Assembly: GCF_002854065.1 (NCBI RefSeq)
Contig: NZ_CP024147.1
Strand: one strand, 5' to 3'
From: Escherichia coli
GTDB lineage: Bacteria > Pseudomonadota > Gammaproteobacteria > Enterobacterales > Enterobacteriaceae
Length of the DNA: 64,000 nt
Shown: one piece after another, positions 1,668-29,521 of the stretch
How positions within the stretch are numbered: position 1 is the stretch's first letter
How the letters are laid out: each line of letters begins with the position of its first letter
Made by a program: the position numbers and the translations under genes
Notes under the pieces: generated by a model
Database searches by the model: none
What the model was told of the DNA's origin: nothing
The model's input: only the letters and a program-made list of their open reading frames with translations

Positions 1668-2567
1668 TTACGCAGAGAAAAAGGCGATGAGGATCGGCAC
1701 TAACAGGCTAAGAATAAAACCGTGAACAATTGCCGCCGGGACCATATCCAGCCCGCCAGTACGTTGAAGAACGGGCAGGGTGAAATCCATCGACGTCGCA
1801 CCGCATAAGCCCAGTGCGGTAGAGCGGCTGCGGCGAATCAGCCCAGGGATCAACATAATTGCAATCAGCTCACGGGCCAGATCATTAAAAAACGCCGCGC
1901 TCCCGATTACCGGACCAAAAGATTCGGTCAATAAAATACCGGAAAGAGAATACCAGCCGAAACCAGAGGCCATTGCCAGCGCGGTATTGATGGGTAGATC
2001 AAGAATAAAGGCGTTAATTAAACCACCAATTAATGAACTGGCAACCACCACCACGGCGACAATCATTCCCCGGCGATTAAGGACAATCTGCTTTAAGGTC
2101 ATGCCATTATTGCGCAACTGAATACCGACGAGGAAAAGTAGCAGAATTAACGTGTATTCACTGGCTTCGGTCGCGTGTTGTAAGAAAGCCAGTCCACTCA
2201 GGCCAATGGCAAAACCAATCACTACTACGCCGCACAGTTTTAGCGACTCAAGCGCCATCGCAATACGCGACGGGAGTTTTTCTTGCTGATGGTGGTTGCG
2301 CCACGGCAGACCGCGCTCCAGCCATATAAGGGCGGCAATATTACACAGTAAAATAACGGTAATACTGACGGCAGAATAATGCAGAATCGCCAACAGGTTA
2401 CTGGCGAGGTTATCGAGAAACGCCAGACTGATACCCATAAAAAAGAGAATAAGGTAAACCATCCAGCTTAATAGCTGATTAATAACTTTTAACGCAGCTT
2501 GTTGGCGAAGCGGAATGAGGTAACCCACAATCAGGGGAACCAGAATGATTAACAGCCCAGAAAACAT
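1668..2567 (-). CDS. lysO: lysine exporter LysO (YbjE), inner-membrane protein
   Basis: 299-aa ORF, strongly hydrophobic, starting MFSGLLIILVPLIVGYLIPL; matches YbjE/LysO by recall and position. Confidence 0.85.
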   Translation of the reverse strand: MFSGLLIILVPLIVGYLIPLRQQAALKVINQLLSWMVYLILFFMGISLAFLDNLASNLLAILHYSAVSITVILLCNIAALIWLERGLPWRNHHQQEKLPSRIAMALESLKLCGVVVIGFAIGLSGLAFLQHATEASEYTLILLLFLVGIQLRNNGMTLKQIVLNRRGMIVAVVVVASSLIGGLINAFILDLPINTALAMASGFGWYSLSGILLTESFGPVIGSAAFFNDLARELIAIMLIPGLIRRSRSTALGLCGATSMDFTLPVLQRTGGLDMVPAAIVHGFILSLLVPILIAFFSA

Positions 2568-2761
2568 GAAAACCCAGCCCTTGCAAAGAAAGAAGTCGAA
2601 ATGCGCGATGACACACTACTGAAAGCGGAAGGACGAGTAAAGTTGCAATTAAAAGGAAATGTTATGCATCAGAGGGGGATTTTTAATTCTATATGAGTGT
2701 TTAGCATTGTTGCGCTCCTTTCATGTGCAATGCCATATAAAGCCACTGGCGCAGGGAGCGC

Positions 2762-2919
2762 GCAGGGGGCGGCCAGTCGCCGCCGCCCCCTGCACCCCCG
2801 GGCTCTGGCGAACAAAATCGCCGCTGCGCGGTACCTTCAGCTTATCCCCTTCGGCTACCGGGTCGGGCGCGAGGTAACGTCCTGTAAGACGCGCCCTCAG
2901 CCCACATCCATGTGGGCTG
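2762..2919. repeat. GC-rich palindromic intergenic element (two perfect inverted repeats)
   Basis: GCAGGGGGCGGC-N8-GCCGCCCCCTGC at 2762..2793 and CAGCCCACAT-CC-ATGTGGGCTG at 2898..2919, in a stretch far more GC-rich than the flanking DNA; possibly a dispersed REP/boxC-like repeat. Confidence 0.3.
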
Positions 2920-3359
2920 CCCCGGCCTTCAGGGAACGCCTCGGCGATTTTGACGCCACCAACATCCGTGCGGTTTGTAACGTCGAAGATAAAACAACCA
3001 GGGCAGATAAAATGCCAATGCTAATTAATTACGTTTTTCCAGCAGGGTCCGGTAAATCAGACCACCGATAATGCCGCCGACAATTGGCACCACCCAGAAG
3101 AACCACAGTTGTTCTAATGCCCAGCCGCCCTGGAAGATGGCAACCGCGGTGCTGCGCGCCGGGTTAACAGAAGTGTTAGTCACCGGAATACTGATTAAGT
3201 GAATCAGGGTTAAGGCCAGACCAATAGCGATCGGCGCAAAACCTGCCGGAGCGAATTTGTCGGTTGCGCCGTGGATCACCAACAGGAAACCTGCACTCAA
3301 TACCAGTTCAACTACCAGCGCGGAAAGCATGGAATAACCGCCTGGTGAATGCTCGCCAT

Positions 3360-3368
3360 AACCGTTAG
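3360..3368. repeat. IS1 target-site duplication (left copy, AACCGTTAG)
   Basis: A 9-bp direct repeat AACCGTTAG immediately flanks both IS1 ends (3360..3368 and 4137..4145). Confidence 0.85.
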
Positions 3369-3423
3369 GGTGATGCTGCCAACTTACTGATTTAGTGTAT
3401 GATGGTGTTTTTGAGGTGCTCCA

Positions 3424-3699
3424 GTGGCTTCTGTTTCTATCAGCTGTCCCTCCTGTTCAGCTACTGACGGGGTGGTGCGTAACGGCAAAAGCACTGCCGG
3501 ACATCAGCGCTATCTCTGCTCTCACTGCCGTAAAACATGGCAACTGCAGTTCACTTACACCGCTTCTCAACCCGGTACGCACCAGAAAATCATTGATATG
3601 GCCATGAATGGCGTTGGATGCCGGGCAACCGCCCGCATTATGGGCGTTGGCCTCAACACGATTTTCCGCCATTTAAAAAACTCAGGCCGCAGTCGGTAA
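3424..3699 (+). CDS. insA: IS1 InsA (transposition inhibitor / N-terminal part of InsAB')
   Basis: 91-aa [46 protein letters not shown]... matches canonical IS1 InsA. Confidence 0.95.
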
Positions 3700-4121
3700 C
3701 CTCGCGCATACAGCCGGGCAGTGACGTCATCGTCTGCGCGGAAATGGACGAACAGTGGGGATACGTCGGGGCTAAATCGAGCCAGCGCTGGCTGTTTTAC
3801 GCGTATGACAGGCTCCGGAAGACGGTTGTTGCGCACGTATTCGGTGAACGCACTATGGCGACGCTGGGGCGTCTTATGAGCCTGCTGTCACCCTTTGACG
3901 TGGTGATATGGATGACGGATGGCTGGCCGCTGTATGAATCCCGCCTGAAGGGAAAGCTGCACGTAATCAGCAAGCGATATACGCAGCGAATTGAGCGGCA
4001 TAACCTGAATCTGAGGCAGCACCTGGCACGGCTGGGACGGAAGTCGCTGTCGTTCTCAAAATCGGTGGAGCTGCATGACAAAGTCATCGGGCATTATCTG
4101 AACATAAAACACTATCAATAA
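3618..4121 (+). CDS. insB: IS1 InsB reading frame (expressed as InsAB' transposase by -1 frameshift)
   Basis: 167-aa frame ...[64 protein letters not shown]... matches IS1 InsB; it overlaps the insA 3' end in the -1 frame. Confidence 0.9.
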
Positions 4122-4136
4122 GTTGGAGTCATTACC

Positions 4137-4145
4137 AACCGTTAG
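4137..4145. repeat. IS1 target-site duplication (right copy, AACCGTTAG)
   Basis: Identical 9 bp to 3360..3368. Confidence 0.85.
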
Positions 4146-4922
4146 AAGCAAAACCGCTGGCTGCCGCGTCAAAACCCGTTTTACCACTGGCAATTAAATA
4201 CAGCAGCGCCGCTGCAACAATACCGCCGACAACCTGGGCAATTACGTAGCCAACGACTTCTTTTGCCGGAAAACGTCCGCCAGCCCATAAACCAATAGTG
4301 ACCGCCGGGTTAAAATGACCACCAGAAATATGACCAACAGCGAAGGCCATCGTCAGAACGGTCAAACCGAATGCCAGCGCCACGCCGGCAAAACCAATGC
4401 CTAATTCCGGGAAGCCTGCGGCCAGTACAGCACTACCACAGCCACCAAAAACAAGCCAGAAAGTACCAAAACATTCAGCTGCTAATTTTCTGAACATATC
4501 CACCTCAATTAAAAATTGACCCTGTGAAAAATATGGTCGTTTTATAGGGTCGTCGTAAAAAAGTGACGACGGAAATAATGCGCGGCTATTTTAAAAACGA
4601 AGGCGAGTCATTCACCAGATAAATAAATCCAGTAAATTTGATTTAGGGCAACAGCGGGTTGCCCCATATAGTCATTTGTCTGATTGACAGTGTAGTGCAA
4701 GCAAAAGATTTAATCCTTTAGGCGTAATAAAAAATAATTTATCATGCTAATTATTTGATTTTGTTGTTTTTGCAGACTTATCAGCAAGAGGGAGTATAAC
4801 GCGATTATTCGCTCATTTTTCAGACATTTGCCATGCTTAAATGTGATGTCATCACGTATTAGCAAGGCCTTTCCCGTTATACTGCCAGCGTAAAGGATAA
4901 GTCACATATTTCTGGAGGGGAT

Positions 4923-6581
4923 ATGATTCTTGAGCGCGTTGAAATTGTGGGTTTTCGCGGTATCAACCGTTTGTCGTTGATGCTGGAACAAAACAACGTC
5001 CTGATTGGGGAGAACGCGTGGGGTAAATCCAGCTTGCTGGACGCCTTAACCCTGCTGCTATCGCCAGAATCAGATCTCTACCATTTTGAGCGCGACGATT
5101 TCTGGTTCCCGCCGGGAGATATCAACGGGCGAGAACATCATCTGCATATTATTTTGACCTTCCGCGAATCGCTGCCAGGCCGACATCGGGTACGCCGTTA
5201 TCGGCCGCTGGAAGCGTGCTGGACGCCATGCACCGATGGCTATCACCGTATTTTTTATCGTCTGGAAGGGGAGAGTGCGGAAGACGGCAGCGTGATGACA
5301 CTGCGCAGTTTTCTCGATAAAGACGGACATCCGATTGATGTTGAGGATATTAACGATCAGGCACGCCATCTGGTGCGTTTAATGCCGGTGCTGCGCTTGC
5401 GTGATGCCCGTTTTATGCGCCGTATTCGTAACGGCACGGTGCCAAATGTCCCCAATGTGGAAGTCACCGCGCGCCAGCTCGATTTCCTCGCCCGTGAGTT
5501 GTCCTCACATCCGCAAAATCTCTCTGATGGACAGATTCGTCAGGGACTTTCCGCAATGGTACAGCTGCTTGAGCATTATTTCTCTGAGCAGGGGGCCGGA
5601 CAGGCGCGATATCGTTTAATGCGGCGGCGAGCCAGCAATGAGCAACGAAGCTGGCGCTATCTGGATATCATCAACCGGATGATTGACCGACCTGGAGGGC
5701 GCTCGTATCGGGTTATTTTGCTCGGCCTGTTTGCTACTTTATTGCAGGCAAAAGGCACATTGCGACTGGATAAAGACGCCCGTCCATTGTTGCTGATCGA
5801 AGATCCAGAAACCCGTTTACACCCCATTATGCTTTCAGTTGCCTGGCATCTGTTGAATCTTTTGCCTTTACAACGTATTGCTACCACCAACTCTGGCGAG
5901 CTGCTTTCGTTAACTCCAGTGGAACATGTTTGCCGCCTGGTGCGTGAATCTTCTCGTGTTGCCGCCTGGCGTCTGGGGCCAAGTGGCTTGAGCACCGAAG
6001 ACAGCCGCCGCATCTCTTTTCACATTCGTTTTAATCGTCCGTCATCGCTGTTTGCTCGCTGCTGGTTGCTGGTGGAAGGGGAAACGGAAACCTGGGTTAT
6101 CAATGAACTGGCGCGTCAGTGCGGACATCATTTTGATGCCGAAGGGATCAAGGTCATTGAGTTTGCCCAGTCCGGGCTAAAGCCACTGGTTAAATTTGCC
6201 CGGCGAATGGGGATTGAATGGCATGTACTGGTCGATGGCGATGAAGCAGGGAAGAAATATGCCGCTACGGTACGCAGCCTGTTGAATAATGATCGGGAAG
6301 CCGAACGAGAACATTTAACGGCGTTACCGGCGCTGGATATGGAACATTTTATGTATCGCCAGGGATTTTCCGATGTGTTCCACCGCGTGGCGCAAATCCC
6401 GGAAAATGTACCGATGAATCTGCGCAAAATTATCTCGAAAGCGATCCATCGCTCTTCCAAACCCGATCTTGCCATTGAAGTGGCAATGGAGGCCGGACGT
6501 CGTGGTGTGGACTCCGTACCGACGCTGCTGAAAAAAATGTTCTCACGCGTGCTGTGGCTGGCGCGCGGTCGCGCGGATTAA
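4923..6581 (+). CDS. ybjD: OLD-family ATP-dependent endonuclease homolog (ABC-type ATPase N-domain plus TOPRIM C-domain)
   Basis: 552-aa ORF; Walker A GENAWGKSS, Walker B-like LLLIEDPE, C-terminal TOPRIM motifs LLVEGETE and HVLVDGDEAG; matches YbjD by recall. Confidence 0.85.
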   Translation: MILERVEIVGFRGINRLSLMLEQNNVLIGENAWGKSSLLDALTLLLSPESDLYHFERDDFWFPPGDINGREHHLHIILTFRESLPGRHRVRRYRPLEACWTPCTDGYHRIFYRLEGESAEDGSVMTLRSFLDKDGHPIDVEDINDQARHLVRLMPVLRLRDARFMRRIRNGTVPNVPNVEVTARQLDFLARELSSHPQNLSDGQIRQGLSAMVQLLEHYFSEQGAGQARYRLMRRRASNEQRSWRYLDIINRMIDRPGGRSYRVILLGLFATLLQAKGTLRLDKDARPLLLIEDPETRLHPIMLSVAWHLLNLLPLQRIATTNSGELLSLTPVEHVCRLVRESSRVAAWRLGPSGLSTEDSRRISFHIRFNRPSSLFARCWLLVEGETETWVINELARQCGHHFDAEGIKVIEFAQSGLKPLVKFARRMGIEWHVLVDGDEAGKKYAATVRSLLNNDREAEREHLTALPALDMEHFMYRQGFSDVFHRVAQIPENVPMNLRKIISKAIHRSSKPDLAIEVAMEAGRRGVDSVPTLLKKMFSRVLWLARGRAD

Positions 6582-14202: not shown

Positions 14203-14290
14203 ATTCACTGCCGTACAGGCAGCTTAGAAAGTCAACCGAAAGAAAAACTCGATTTTTATACCGTTCACTGCTGTACAGGTAGATAAAATG
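14203..14290 (+). CRISPR. orphan type I-F CRISPR remnant (2 repeats, 1 spacer), no adjacent cas genes
   Basis: Repeat 1 ATTCACTGCCGTACAGGCAGCTTAGAAA (14203..14230), 32-bp spacer GTCAACCGAAAGAAAAACTCGATTTTTATACC (14231..14262), degenerate repeat 2 GTTCACTGCTGTACAGGTAGATAAAATG (14263..14290); repeat 1 matches the E. coli I-F repeat consensus as recalled. Confidence 0.8.
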
Positions 14291-21673: not shown

Positions 21674-24600
21674 TTGAGCCAGGAATACACTGAAGACAAA
21701 GAAGTCACATTGACAAAGTTAAGTAGCGGCCGCCGCCTTCTGGAGGCGTTGCTGATCCTTATTGTCCTGTTTGCCGTCTGGTTGATGGCTGCCTTACTAA
21801 GCTTTAACCCTTCGGACCCCAGCTGGTCGCAAACGGCCTGGCATGAACCTATCCATAATTTAGGTGGGATGCCCGGTGCGTGGTTGGCAGATACGCTGTT
21901 CTTTATTTTTGGCGTGATGGCTTACACCATTCCCGTCATTATTGTCGGCGGTTGTTGGTTTGCCTGGCGTCATCAGTCCAGCGACGAATACATTGATTAT
22001 TTTGCCGTTTCGCTACGCATCATTGGCGTTTTGGCGCTCATCCTTACCTCCTGTGGTCTGGCGGCAATCAACGCTGACGATATCTGGTATTTTGCCTCCG
22101 GTGGCGTCATTGGCAGCTTACTAAGCACTACGCTACAACCACTGCTACACAGTAGCGGGGGAACTATTGCGCTGCTCTGCGTTTGGGCAGCGGGCCTGAC
22201 GTTGTTCACCGGTTGGTCATGGGTGACCATTGCTGAAAAACTCGGCGGCTGGATTTTAAACATTCTCACCTTCGCCAGTAATCGTACCCGTCGCGATGAT
22301 ACCTGGGTCGATGAAGATGAGTATGAAGACGACGAAGAGTATGAAGATGAAAATCACGGCAAACAGCATGAATCACGCCGTGCCCGTATTCTTCGCGGCG
22401 CGCTAGCGCGTCGTAAACGGTTGGCGGAAAAATTCATTAATCCGATGGGGCGGCAAACAGACGCTGCGTTGTTCTCCGGTAAGCGGATGGATGATGACGA
22501 AGAGATTACCTACACTGCACGCGGTGTGGCTGCCGACCCGGACGACGTCCTATTTTCGGGCAATCGTGCAACGCAGCCAGAATATGACGAATACGATCCA
22601 TTATTAAACGGTGCGCCAATTACCGAACCTGTCGCTGTAGCAGCTGCTGCTACCACGGCGACGCAAAGCTGGGCTGCACCGGTTGAACCTGTGACTCAGA
22701 CGCCACCTGTTGCCTCTGTTGATGTTCCACCTGCGCAACCTACAGTAGCCTGGCAGCCTGTACCGGGTCCACAAACGGGAGAGCCGGTTATTGCTCCTGC
22801 ACCGGAAGGTTACCCACAGCAGTCACAATATGCGCAGCCTGCAGTGCAATATAATGAGCCGCTGCAACAACCAGTACAGCCGCAGCAGCCGTATTATGCA
22901 CCTGCAGCTGAACAACCTGCGCAACAACCTTACTACGCTCCTGCGGCGGAACAACCTGTTCAGCAACCGTATTACGCAACTGCGCCGGAACAGCCTGCGC
23001 AACAGCCGTATTATGCCCCTGCGCCAGAACAACCGGTGGCAGGTAACGCCTGGCAAGCCGAAGAGCAGCAATCCACTTTTGCTCCACAGTCTACATACCA
23101 GACTGAGCAAACTTATCAGCAGCCAGCCGCTCAGGAGCCGTTGTACCAACAGCCGCAACCTGTTGAACAGCAGCCTGTTGTGGAGCCTGAACCCGTTGTA
23201 GAAGAGACAAAACCCGCGCGTCCGCCGCTTTACTACTTTGAAGAAGTGGAAGAGAAGCGAGCCCGTGAACGTGAACAACTTGCGGCCTGGTATCAACCGA
23301 TTCCAGAACCGGTTAAAGAACCAGAACCGATCAAATCTTCGCTGAAAGCACCTTCTGTTGCAGCAGTACCTCCAGTAGAAGCCGCTGCCGCTGTTTCTCC
23401 GCTGGCATCTGGCGTGAAAAAAGCGACACTGGCGACGGGGGCTGCCGCAACCGTTGCCGCGCCAGTCTTCAGTCTGGCAAATAGCGGTGGACCGCGTCCG
23501 CAGGTCAAAGAGGGGATTGGCCCGCAGTTGCCACGACCGAAACGTATCCGCGTGCCAACTCGTCGTGAATTGGCGTCTTACGGTATTAAACTGCCCTCAC
23601 AGCGTGCGGCGGAAGAAAAAGCCCGTGAAGCCCAGCGCAATCAGTACGATTCTGGCGATCAGTACAACGATGATGAAATCGATGCGATGCAGCAGGATGA
23701 ACTGGCACGTCAGTTCGCCCAGACACAGCAGCAACGCTATGGCGAACAGTATCAACATGATGTGCCCGTAAACGCAGAAGATGCAGATGCTGCGGCAGAG
23801 GCTGAACTGGCTCGTCAGTTTGCGCAAACTCAACAACAACGTTATTCCGGCGAACAACCGGCTGGGGCGAATCCGTTCTCGCTGGATGATTTTGAATTTT
23901 CGCCAATGAAAGCGTTGCTGGATGATGGTCCACACGAACCGTTGTTTACGCCAATTGTTGAACCTGTACAGCAGCCGCAACAACCGGTTGCACCGCAGCA
24001 GCAGTATCAGCAGCCACAACAGCCGGTTGCGCCACAGCAGCAATATCAGCAGCCGCAACAACCGGTTGCACCGCAGCAGCAATATCAGCAGCCGCAACAA
24101 CCGGTTGCACCGCAGCCGCAATATCAGCAGCCGCAACAGCCAGTTGCGCCGCAGCCGCAGTATCAGCAGCCACAACAATCGGCTGCACCACAGCAGCAAT
24201 ATCAGCAGCCGCAACAGCCAGTTGCGCCACAGCCGCAGGATACTCTGCTTCATCCGCTGTTGATGCGTAATGGCGACAGCCGTCCGTTGCATAAACCGAC
24301 GACGCCGCTGCCTTCTCTGGATTTGCTGACACCGCCGCCGAGCGAAGTGGAGCCGGTAGATACCTTTGCGCTTGAACAAATGGCTCGCCTGGTGGAAGCG
24401 CGTCTGGCTGATTTCCGTATTAAAGCCGATGTCGTCAATTACTCTCCGGGGCCGGTTATCACTCGCTTTGAACTTAACCTGGCACCGGGCGTAAAAGCGG
24501 CGCGCATTTCTAACTTGTCACGGGACCTTGCCCGTTCACTTTCGACGGTGGCGGTGCGTGTCGTTGAAGTTATTCCTGGCAAACCCTATGTAGGTCTGGA

Positions 24601-29283: not shown

Positions 29284-29303
29284 TACCCAATTTTTCTGAA
29301 TCT

Positions 29304-29329
29304 AAAAAGCGCCTGCGGGCGCTTTTTTT
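29304..29329 (+). terminator. serS rho-independent terminator
   Basis: AAAAAGCGCC-TGCG-GGCGCTTTTTTT. Confidence 0.75.
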
Positions 29330-29521
29330 GTCTCCCTTTGATACCGAACAATAATTACTCCTCACTTACACGTAATACTACTTTCGAGTGAAAATCTACC
29401 TATCTCTTTGATTTTCAAATTATTCGATGTATACAAGCCTATATAGCGAACTGCTATAGAAATAATTACACAATACGGTTTGTTACTGGAATCAATCGTG
29501 AGCAAGCTTGAGTGAGCCATT

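Follow-up and report, generated by a model that had tools for sequence, protein, structure and literature searches.

The window (the whole 64,000-nucleotide stretch of Escherichia coli DNA analyzed here) carries the aquaporin gene aqpZ on its minus strand (3025..4497), interrupted past codon 120 by an IS1 element on the plus strand. Among the listed open reading frames, two minus-strand aquaporin halves (4132..4503 and 3025..3330) flanked an IS1-type unit. The features of the locus were as follows, in window coordinates:

1668..2567, minus strand: lysO, 457 bp beyond the aqpZ stop
3025..3368, minus strand: aqpZ 3' fragment, codons 121–231 plus stop, severed from promoter and start codon
3360..3368, no strand: left copy of the 9-bp target-site duplication, AACCGTTAG
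3369..4136, plus strand: complete IS1, 768 bp (length and ends determined by script)
3369..3391, plus strand: IS1 left inverted repeat (IRL), one end of the pair GGTGATGCTGCCAACTTACTGAT or GGTAATGACTCCAACTTATTGAT
3424..3699, plus strand: insA, 91 aa, zinc-finger/HTH portion of the transposase (from the open reading frame list and a profile match)
3618..4121, plus strand: insB' frame, catalytic portion (from the open reading frame list and NF033558), with a private Arg-to-Ser change (A at 3780)
3675..3681, plus strand: AAAAAAC (A6C), the −1 programmed frameshift motif joining insA to insB'
4114..4136, minus strand: IS1 right inverted repeat (IRR), 18/23 positions matching IRL
4132..4497, minus strand: aqpZ 5' fragment, residues 1–120 plus Trp, then TAA in IRR
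4137..4145, no strand: right copy of the 9-bp target-site duplication, AACCGTTAG
4923..6581, plus strand: ybjD, divergent from aqpZ

The element was assigned to the IS1 family by its structure and its proteins. It had the ~768-bp length and the imperfect ~23-bp terminal repeats starting GGT(G/A)ATG of the family, overlapping insA and insB' with a −1 frameshift at A6C linking them, and, where 8–9 bp (usually 9) of target are duplicated by IS1, a perfect 9-bp duplication. The terminal inverted repeats (GGTGATGCTGCCAACTTACTGAT vs GGTAATGACTCCAACTTATTGAT) matched at 18 of 23 positions; the left-end 23-mer occurred once in the window (0 expected by chance), and the AACCGTTAG 9-mer occurred twice on the two strands of the 64 kb, both times flanking IS1. 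Both ends of the element, its two reading frames (insA, insB') and A6C were intact. InsB' matched the IS1 transposase profile NF033558 at 143 bits (cutoff 100; profile positions 76–199), as a member of that family, while InsA matched the same profile at 90 bits (positions 1–81) and the IS1/IS1595 zinc domain NF050000 at 41 bits (cutoff 28). A promoter-like CTGCCA-16-TATGAT at 3376–3403 in IRL was directed into insA. IS1A of K-12 MG1655 (NC_000913.3, 19796–20563) was also 768 bp long, with the same insA/insB' organization and identical terminal 12-mers, and differed from the window element by nine substitutions (759/768 bases identical). The sequence-only reading had placed a complete 768-bp IS1 at 3369..4136 on the strand opposite to aqpZ, and its coordinates, ends and frames were all confirmed.

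The aqpZ 5' fragment retained the native promoter side, hydrophobic segments 1–3 and the first NPA motif, and its TAA stop (4132–4134) fell within IRR. The 3' fragment held hydrophobic segments 4–6 and the second NPA motif, with its earliest possible start at Met131 (3330). Excision of 3369..4145 yielded a 696-nt open reading frame (231 aa plus stop). The restored protein carried the two NPA motifs of an aquaporin, at residues 63–65 and 186–188, one per half; it was identical to K-12 AqpZ (PDB 1RC2/2ABM) over residues 1–230 and scored 433.9 bits against NF003838, the aquaporin Z equivalog model (cutoff 256; residues 1–230), an assignment that applies to the restored sequence only. As found in the window, the locus offers no single uninterrupted six-segment frame of the kind that defines an aquaporin: the open reading frame is split by 777 bp and the 5' fragment ends after 121 codons. 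Because of this split, the locus is a pseudogene and not a functional member of the family. Neither half contained a mutation. The hydropathy minimum of AqpZ (residues 121–126) fell at the break, between the third and fourth hydrophobic segments. The break was placed between the two AqpZ halves by hydropathy and by the known fold of aquaporins; aligning the halves to each other by BLASTP brought the NPA motifs into register but did not reach significance (E = 35).

The junctions were searched for in 5,426 complete E. coli genomes. A 300-bp left-junction probe gave an uninterrupted 100% match in one genome only, that of strain CUWW06 (wastewater, Thailand), in which the aqpZ::IS1 locus lies at NZ_CP182139.1, 1770835–1772307. 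The first 12 kb of the window matched CUWW06 end to end. The two genomes shared the site and orientation of the insertion, its 9-bp duplication and both halves of aqpZ, with 3 bases different over 7.5 kb of sequence and 10 SNPs in 64 kb. The PGAP annotation of CUWW06 gives an 'IS1-like element IS1B family transposase' flanked by two 'aquaporin' pseudogene pieces, one with its C-terminus missing (4135..4497) and one with its N-terminus missing (3025..3366), and a 'programmed frameshift' CDS over the equivalent of 3424..4121; the CUWW06 IS1 protein is thus named to the IS1B group and not to IS1A. A second, identical IS1 in CUWW06 (locus coordinates 36132–36899) splits the amino-acid permease gene ycaM, which in the window has an empty site at 36123–36131. 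As ycaM::IS1 is found in CUWW06 and not in the window, the aqpZ insertion is older than the ycaM insertion, and the 10 SNPs together with the empty ycaM site make the window a sister genome distinct from CUWW06. At least 40 IS1 pieces were counted on the CUWW06 chromosome, against a median of ~10 places per genome, which identifies the lineage as IS1-rich.

At position 3780, A was found in the window IS1 and C in all 12 other IS1 copies examined. Both CUWW06 copies (aqpZ and ycaM) differed from the window element at this base alone, with C at the equivalent position. The A changes Arg to Ser in InsB', 11 residues past the Asp of the EMDEQW stretch, an Asp that may be the first catalytic one. 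It could be a sequencing error, and the change is without bearing on the past aqpZ insertion.

In a lineage in which IS1 is so highly repeated (at least 40 pieces in CUWW06), the structure could in principle have arisen in assembly, by collapse or misplacement of a multicopy IS1 into aqpZ, since repeats are a classic cause of misassembly. Both junctions were clean, however, with an exact 9-bp duplication, and artefacts make no target-site duplications. The same junctions and duplication were present in the independent, complete CUWW06 genome, which stands 10 SNPs and one extra IS1 apart; an insertion common to two independent genomes predates their split, and an assembly artefact was ruled out on these grounds as extremely improbable. 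A scar of IS1-mediated rearrangement was also considered and was ruled out by the intact duplication and by the colinearity of both IS1 flanks with K-12 and with strain 100416 (human stool, Gambia).

Strain 100416 provided the empty site, with a single AACCGTTAG. When 3369..4145 was removed from the window, the 11,223 bp compared with 100416 held 4 SNPs, all outside aqpZ, and the two genomes encode identical AqpZ proteins. Several claims made from the letters of the window were borne out by this comparison: alignment with the intact aqpZ of 100416 gave a clean 768-bp insertion plus a 9-bp duplication; the flanking duplication was perfect (AACCGTTAG identical at 3360–3368 and 4137–4145, single at the empty site); and the two aqpZ halves rejoined into a continuous frame of 231 aa on removal of 3369..4145. 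The further proposal of a simple, probably recent insertion was upheld by the base-for-base empty site in 100416, the rarity of the junction (1/5,426 genomes) and the colinear flanks.

From the anatomy of the element, the exact restoration of aqpZ, the empty site and the rarity of the junction, we infer with high confidence a simple IS1 transposition into the chromosomal aqpZ gene of the IS1-rich lineage that contains CUWW06. The InsAB' transposase would have been produced via a −1 frameshift at AAAAAAC, bound the inverted repeats and cut the target with a 9-bp stagger at AACCGTTAG, and repair of the gaps would have doubled the AACCGTTAG 9-mer, leaving one copy on each side of the element. These steps are established IS1 biology. 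IS1 now lies behind codon 120, where AqpZ is at its most hydrophilic, between the NPA-bearing N- and C-terminal halves. The insertion is recent in a relative sense only, being older than the split of CUWW06 and the source of the window.

The native aqpZ transcript would now encode a 121-aa fragment stopping in the IS1 right end, and the 3' half would be deprived of promoter and start codon. Given this fragment and the promoterless 3' half, the allele is expected to yield no working water channel. The absence of mutations from both aqpZ halves supports a recent simple transposition and a probable null allele. The expected phenotype is mild, since rapid water efflux is described as proceeding without a need for AqpZ, whose physiological role is given as unclear, in PMC3325977; the published aqpZ-null phenotypes summarized there are weak or disputed.

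A not-null allele would require that the 5' half, expressed from the aqpZ promoter, reassemble with a 3' half expressed from a hybrid promoter and started at Met131; alternatively, the hybrid promoter might alter lysO. The break lies in a hydrophilic stretch with one NPA motif kept per half, and a formal route to 3'-half expression exists on the minus strand at 3330–3385, where TTGGCA in the IS1 end and TATGGC in the target, spaced by 16 nt, form a left hybrid candidate followed by AGG 8–10 nt before the ATG of Met131 at 3330. IS1-created fusion promoters are on record (Prentki 1986, as cited in the review PMC9330008). The hybrid site matched at 8 of 12 positions, lacked the final T of the −10 and fell under the scan threshold; no start codon was present in the IS1-derived frame; and the half-against-half BLASTP (E = 35) gave no sign that the halves can pair. 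As for an effect on lysO, that gene is 457 bp away, with a strongly folding element (described below) in between. Both versions were judged very unlikely, and a null allele is the preferred reading.

An outward-reading IS1 frame that could affect lysO or ybjD had been proposed from the sequence alone, and this proposal was not supported. The sole frame open across an IS1 end was the aqpZ frame itself, and its IS1-derived part had no ATG, GTG or TTG ahead of Met131 at 3330. A promoter scan of 2500–5000 returned no outward site and only the inward site of IS1 in its left end (3376–3403); in a targeted scan of the IS1 ends, the best site was TTGGCA-16-TATGGC (8/12) on the left and a 6/12 site on the right. 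These results lend no support to an outward frame or promoter. An effect of IS1 on neighboring genes is speculation, and a fusion promoter is not predicted from the sequence. The ybjD product is annotated by PGAP as an ATP-dependent endonuclease; the ~45 N-terminal residues of YbjD gave weak matches, far under cutoffs, to ATPase parts of anti-phage MADS3, PtuA and the retron Eco8 effector.

Between lysO and aqpZ, a GC-rich structured element of ~276 nt was observed on the minus strand (2707–2982). Its minus strand folded at −145.4 kcal/mol (z = −4.5). The K-12 copy (locus coordinates 2005–2290) lies in the opposite orientation and is 92.7% identical; just 7 of the 21 differences between the two fell at predicted paired positions, although these make up 65% of positions, and no compensatory changes were found between these copies. 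The spacer arrangement of the window was present in 894 genomes, and the element or parts of it matched a median of 3 places per genome. At gathering thresholds, Rfam returned nothing for 2500–5000. Below threshold, TwoAYGGAY (RF01731) aligned at 28 bits (gathering 43, E = 0.02), which leaves the element outside the family as defined by that threshold; in the alignment the outer stem was recovered along with two hairpins, whose loops read AUGGAU and A-GGAC. In the K-12 arrangement (locus coordinates 2285–2349), a hairpin and T-run, AAAAAAAGGCCTGACATTACGCCAGGCCTT, lies directly past the aqpZ stop and is missing from 2981–3024 of the window, so that the 3' end of aqpZ may be formed differently in the two types of spacer.

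Three further observations were made elsewhere in the window. An orphan CRISPR repeat (14203–14230, plus strand; Rfam CRISPR-DR4, 47 bits) stood alone, without a further copy close by, between clpA and tRNA-Ser/infA; the clpA–infA site is known in E. coli for degenerate type I-F arrays. The enterobacterial sRNA family STnc130 matched strongly (140 bits; 29297–29431, minus strand) between serS and dmsA. Within ftsK, off-diagonal BLAST hits at 23969–24238 indicated short tandem self-similarity, with 78-bp offset copies of 88–91% identity.

Damage to aqpZ and IS1 insertions near it were surveyed in the same complete genomes. Of the 5,426, 5,423 had aqpZ and 5,382 had it in an essentially contiguous form; the gene is damaged in ~1% of complete E. 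coli genomes. In 32 genomes an IS1 was located no more than ~650 bp from the aqpZ probe segment, with the window orientation in 20 and the opposite one in 12. Control probes built likewise for macA, the cspD–clpS spacer and the AT-rich divergent ybjX–macA spacer gave 0, 0 and 0 genomes. Thirteen loci were mapped and resolved into at least 11 distinct target sites with 8–9-bp duplications, at restored coordinates (the window without 3369..4145) 3292–3909. The recurrent target was observed to comprise the aqpZ 5' half and the aqpZ–ybjD spacer (window 3292–4727, restored 3292–3950), and the spacer is 37% GC.

In strains FXCREC145, 13C1065T, Z0117EC0013, Ec-2977 and PCP07083, an IS1 with an 8–9-bp duplication splits aqpZ and the pieces are annotated as pseudogenes. 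The sites in these strains (restored 3292–3300, 3472–3480 twice, 3610–3618 and 3680–3687) differ from that of the window (3360–3368), and the insertions include some in the opposite orientation and some of a 93%-identical IS1 variant. One 9-mer, GCCAACGAC, was hit twice, by the 93%-identical variant in FXCREC145 and by IS1A in opposite orientation in 13C1065T. Unlike the window, strain MB20 carries an IS1 (locus coordinates 3162–3929) without a duplication; on the right its junction coincides with the one in VTB97584v (restored 3901), and on the left its junction falls within aqpZ (restored 3379). Because of the missing duplication and the right junction common to VTB97584v, MB20 is an IS1-adjacent deletion of ~520 bp in which the aqpZ 5' half and promoter were lost.

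The region is a recurrent IS1 target, and target preference and selection are inseparable as its cause from these data. If the insertion was selected and not neutral, a benefit from loss or silencing of aqpZ, or from changed expression of the divergent ybjD nuclease, would explain the repeated IS1 hits: the 20 and 12 genomes with IS1 near aqpZ against 0, 0 and 0 at the control loci, and the at least 11 distinct target sites, with one 9-bp target reused by different IS1 variants in opposite orientations. We regard this as unlikely. Strong selection for loss is at odds with the survival of aqpZ in nearly every genome, 5,382 of the 5,426 keeping it essentially contiguous; disrupted alleles occur in single strains or small groups, as for neutral or mildly harmful recent events; and published aqpZ-null phenotypes are weak or disputed (PMC3325977). 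Regional preferences of IS1 are known (Zerbib 1985, as cited in PMC9330008), and target preference is a plausible cause of the clustering, given the 37% GC of the spacer. A true IS1 hotspot in which hits are also kept by selection, with some IS1-rich lineages (commensal, poultry or wastewater) profiting from aqpZ silencing or ybjD rewiring, is likewise a doubtful proposition.

The aqpZ::IS1 allele is an ordinary, textbook knockout of a non-essential core gene, already recorded in the public annotation of the sister genome; none of the papers retrieved on aqpZ together with IS1 described an insertion of this type. It is another case of IS1 expansion eroding core genes and raises no new question. 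The AqpZ water channel is almost certainly absent from the source strain, and the CUWW06 clade gains a useful lineage marker in this allele. The hits clustered within ~660 bp could serve as a natural test of IS1 target preference against selection.
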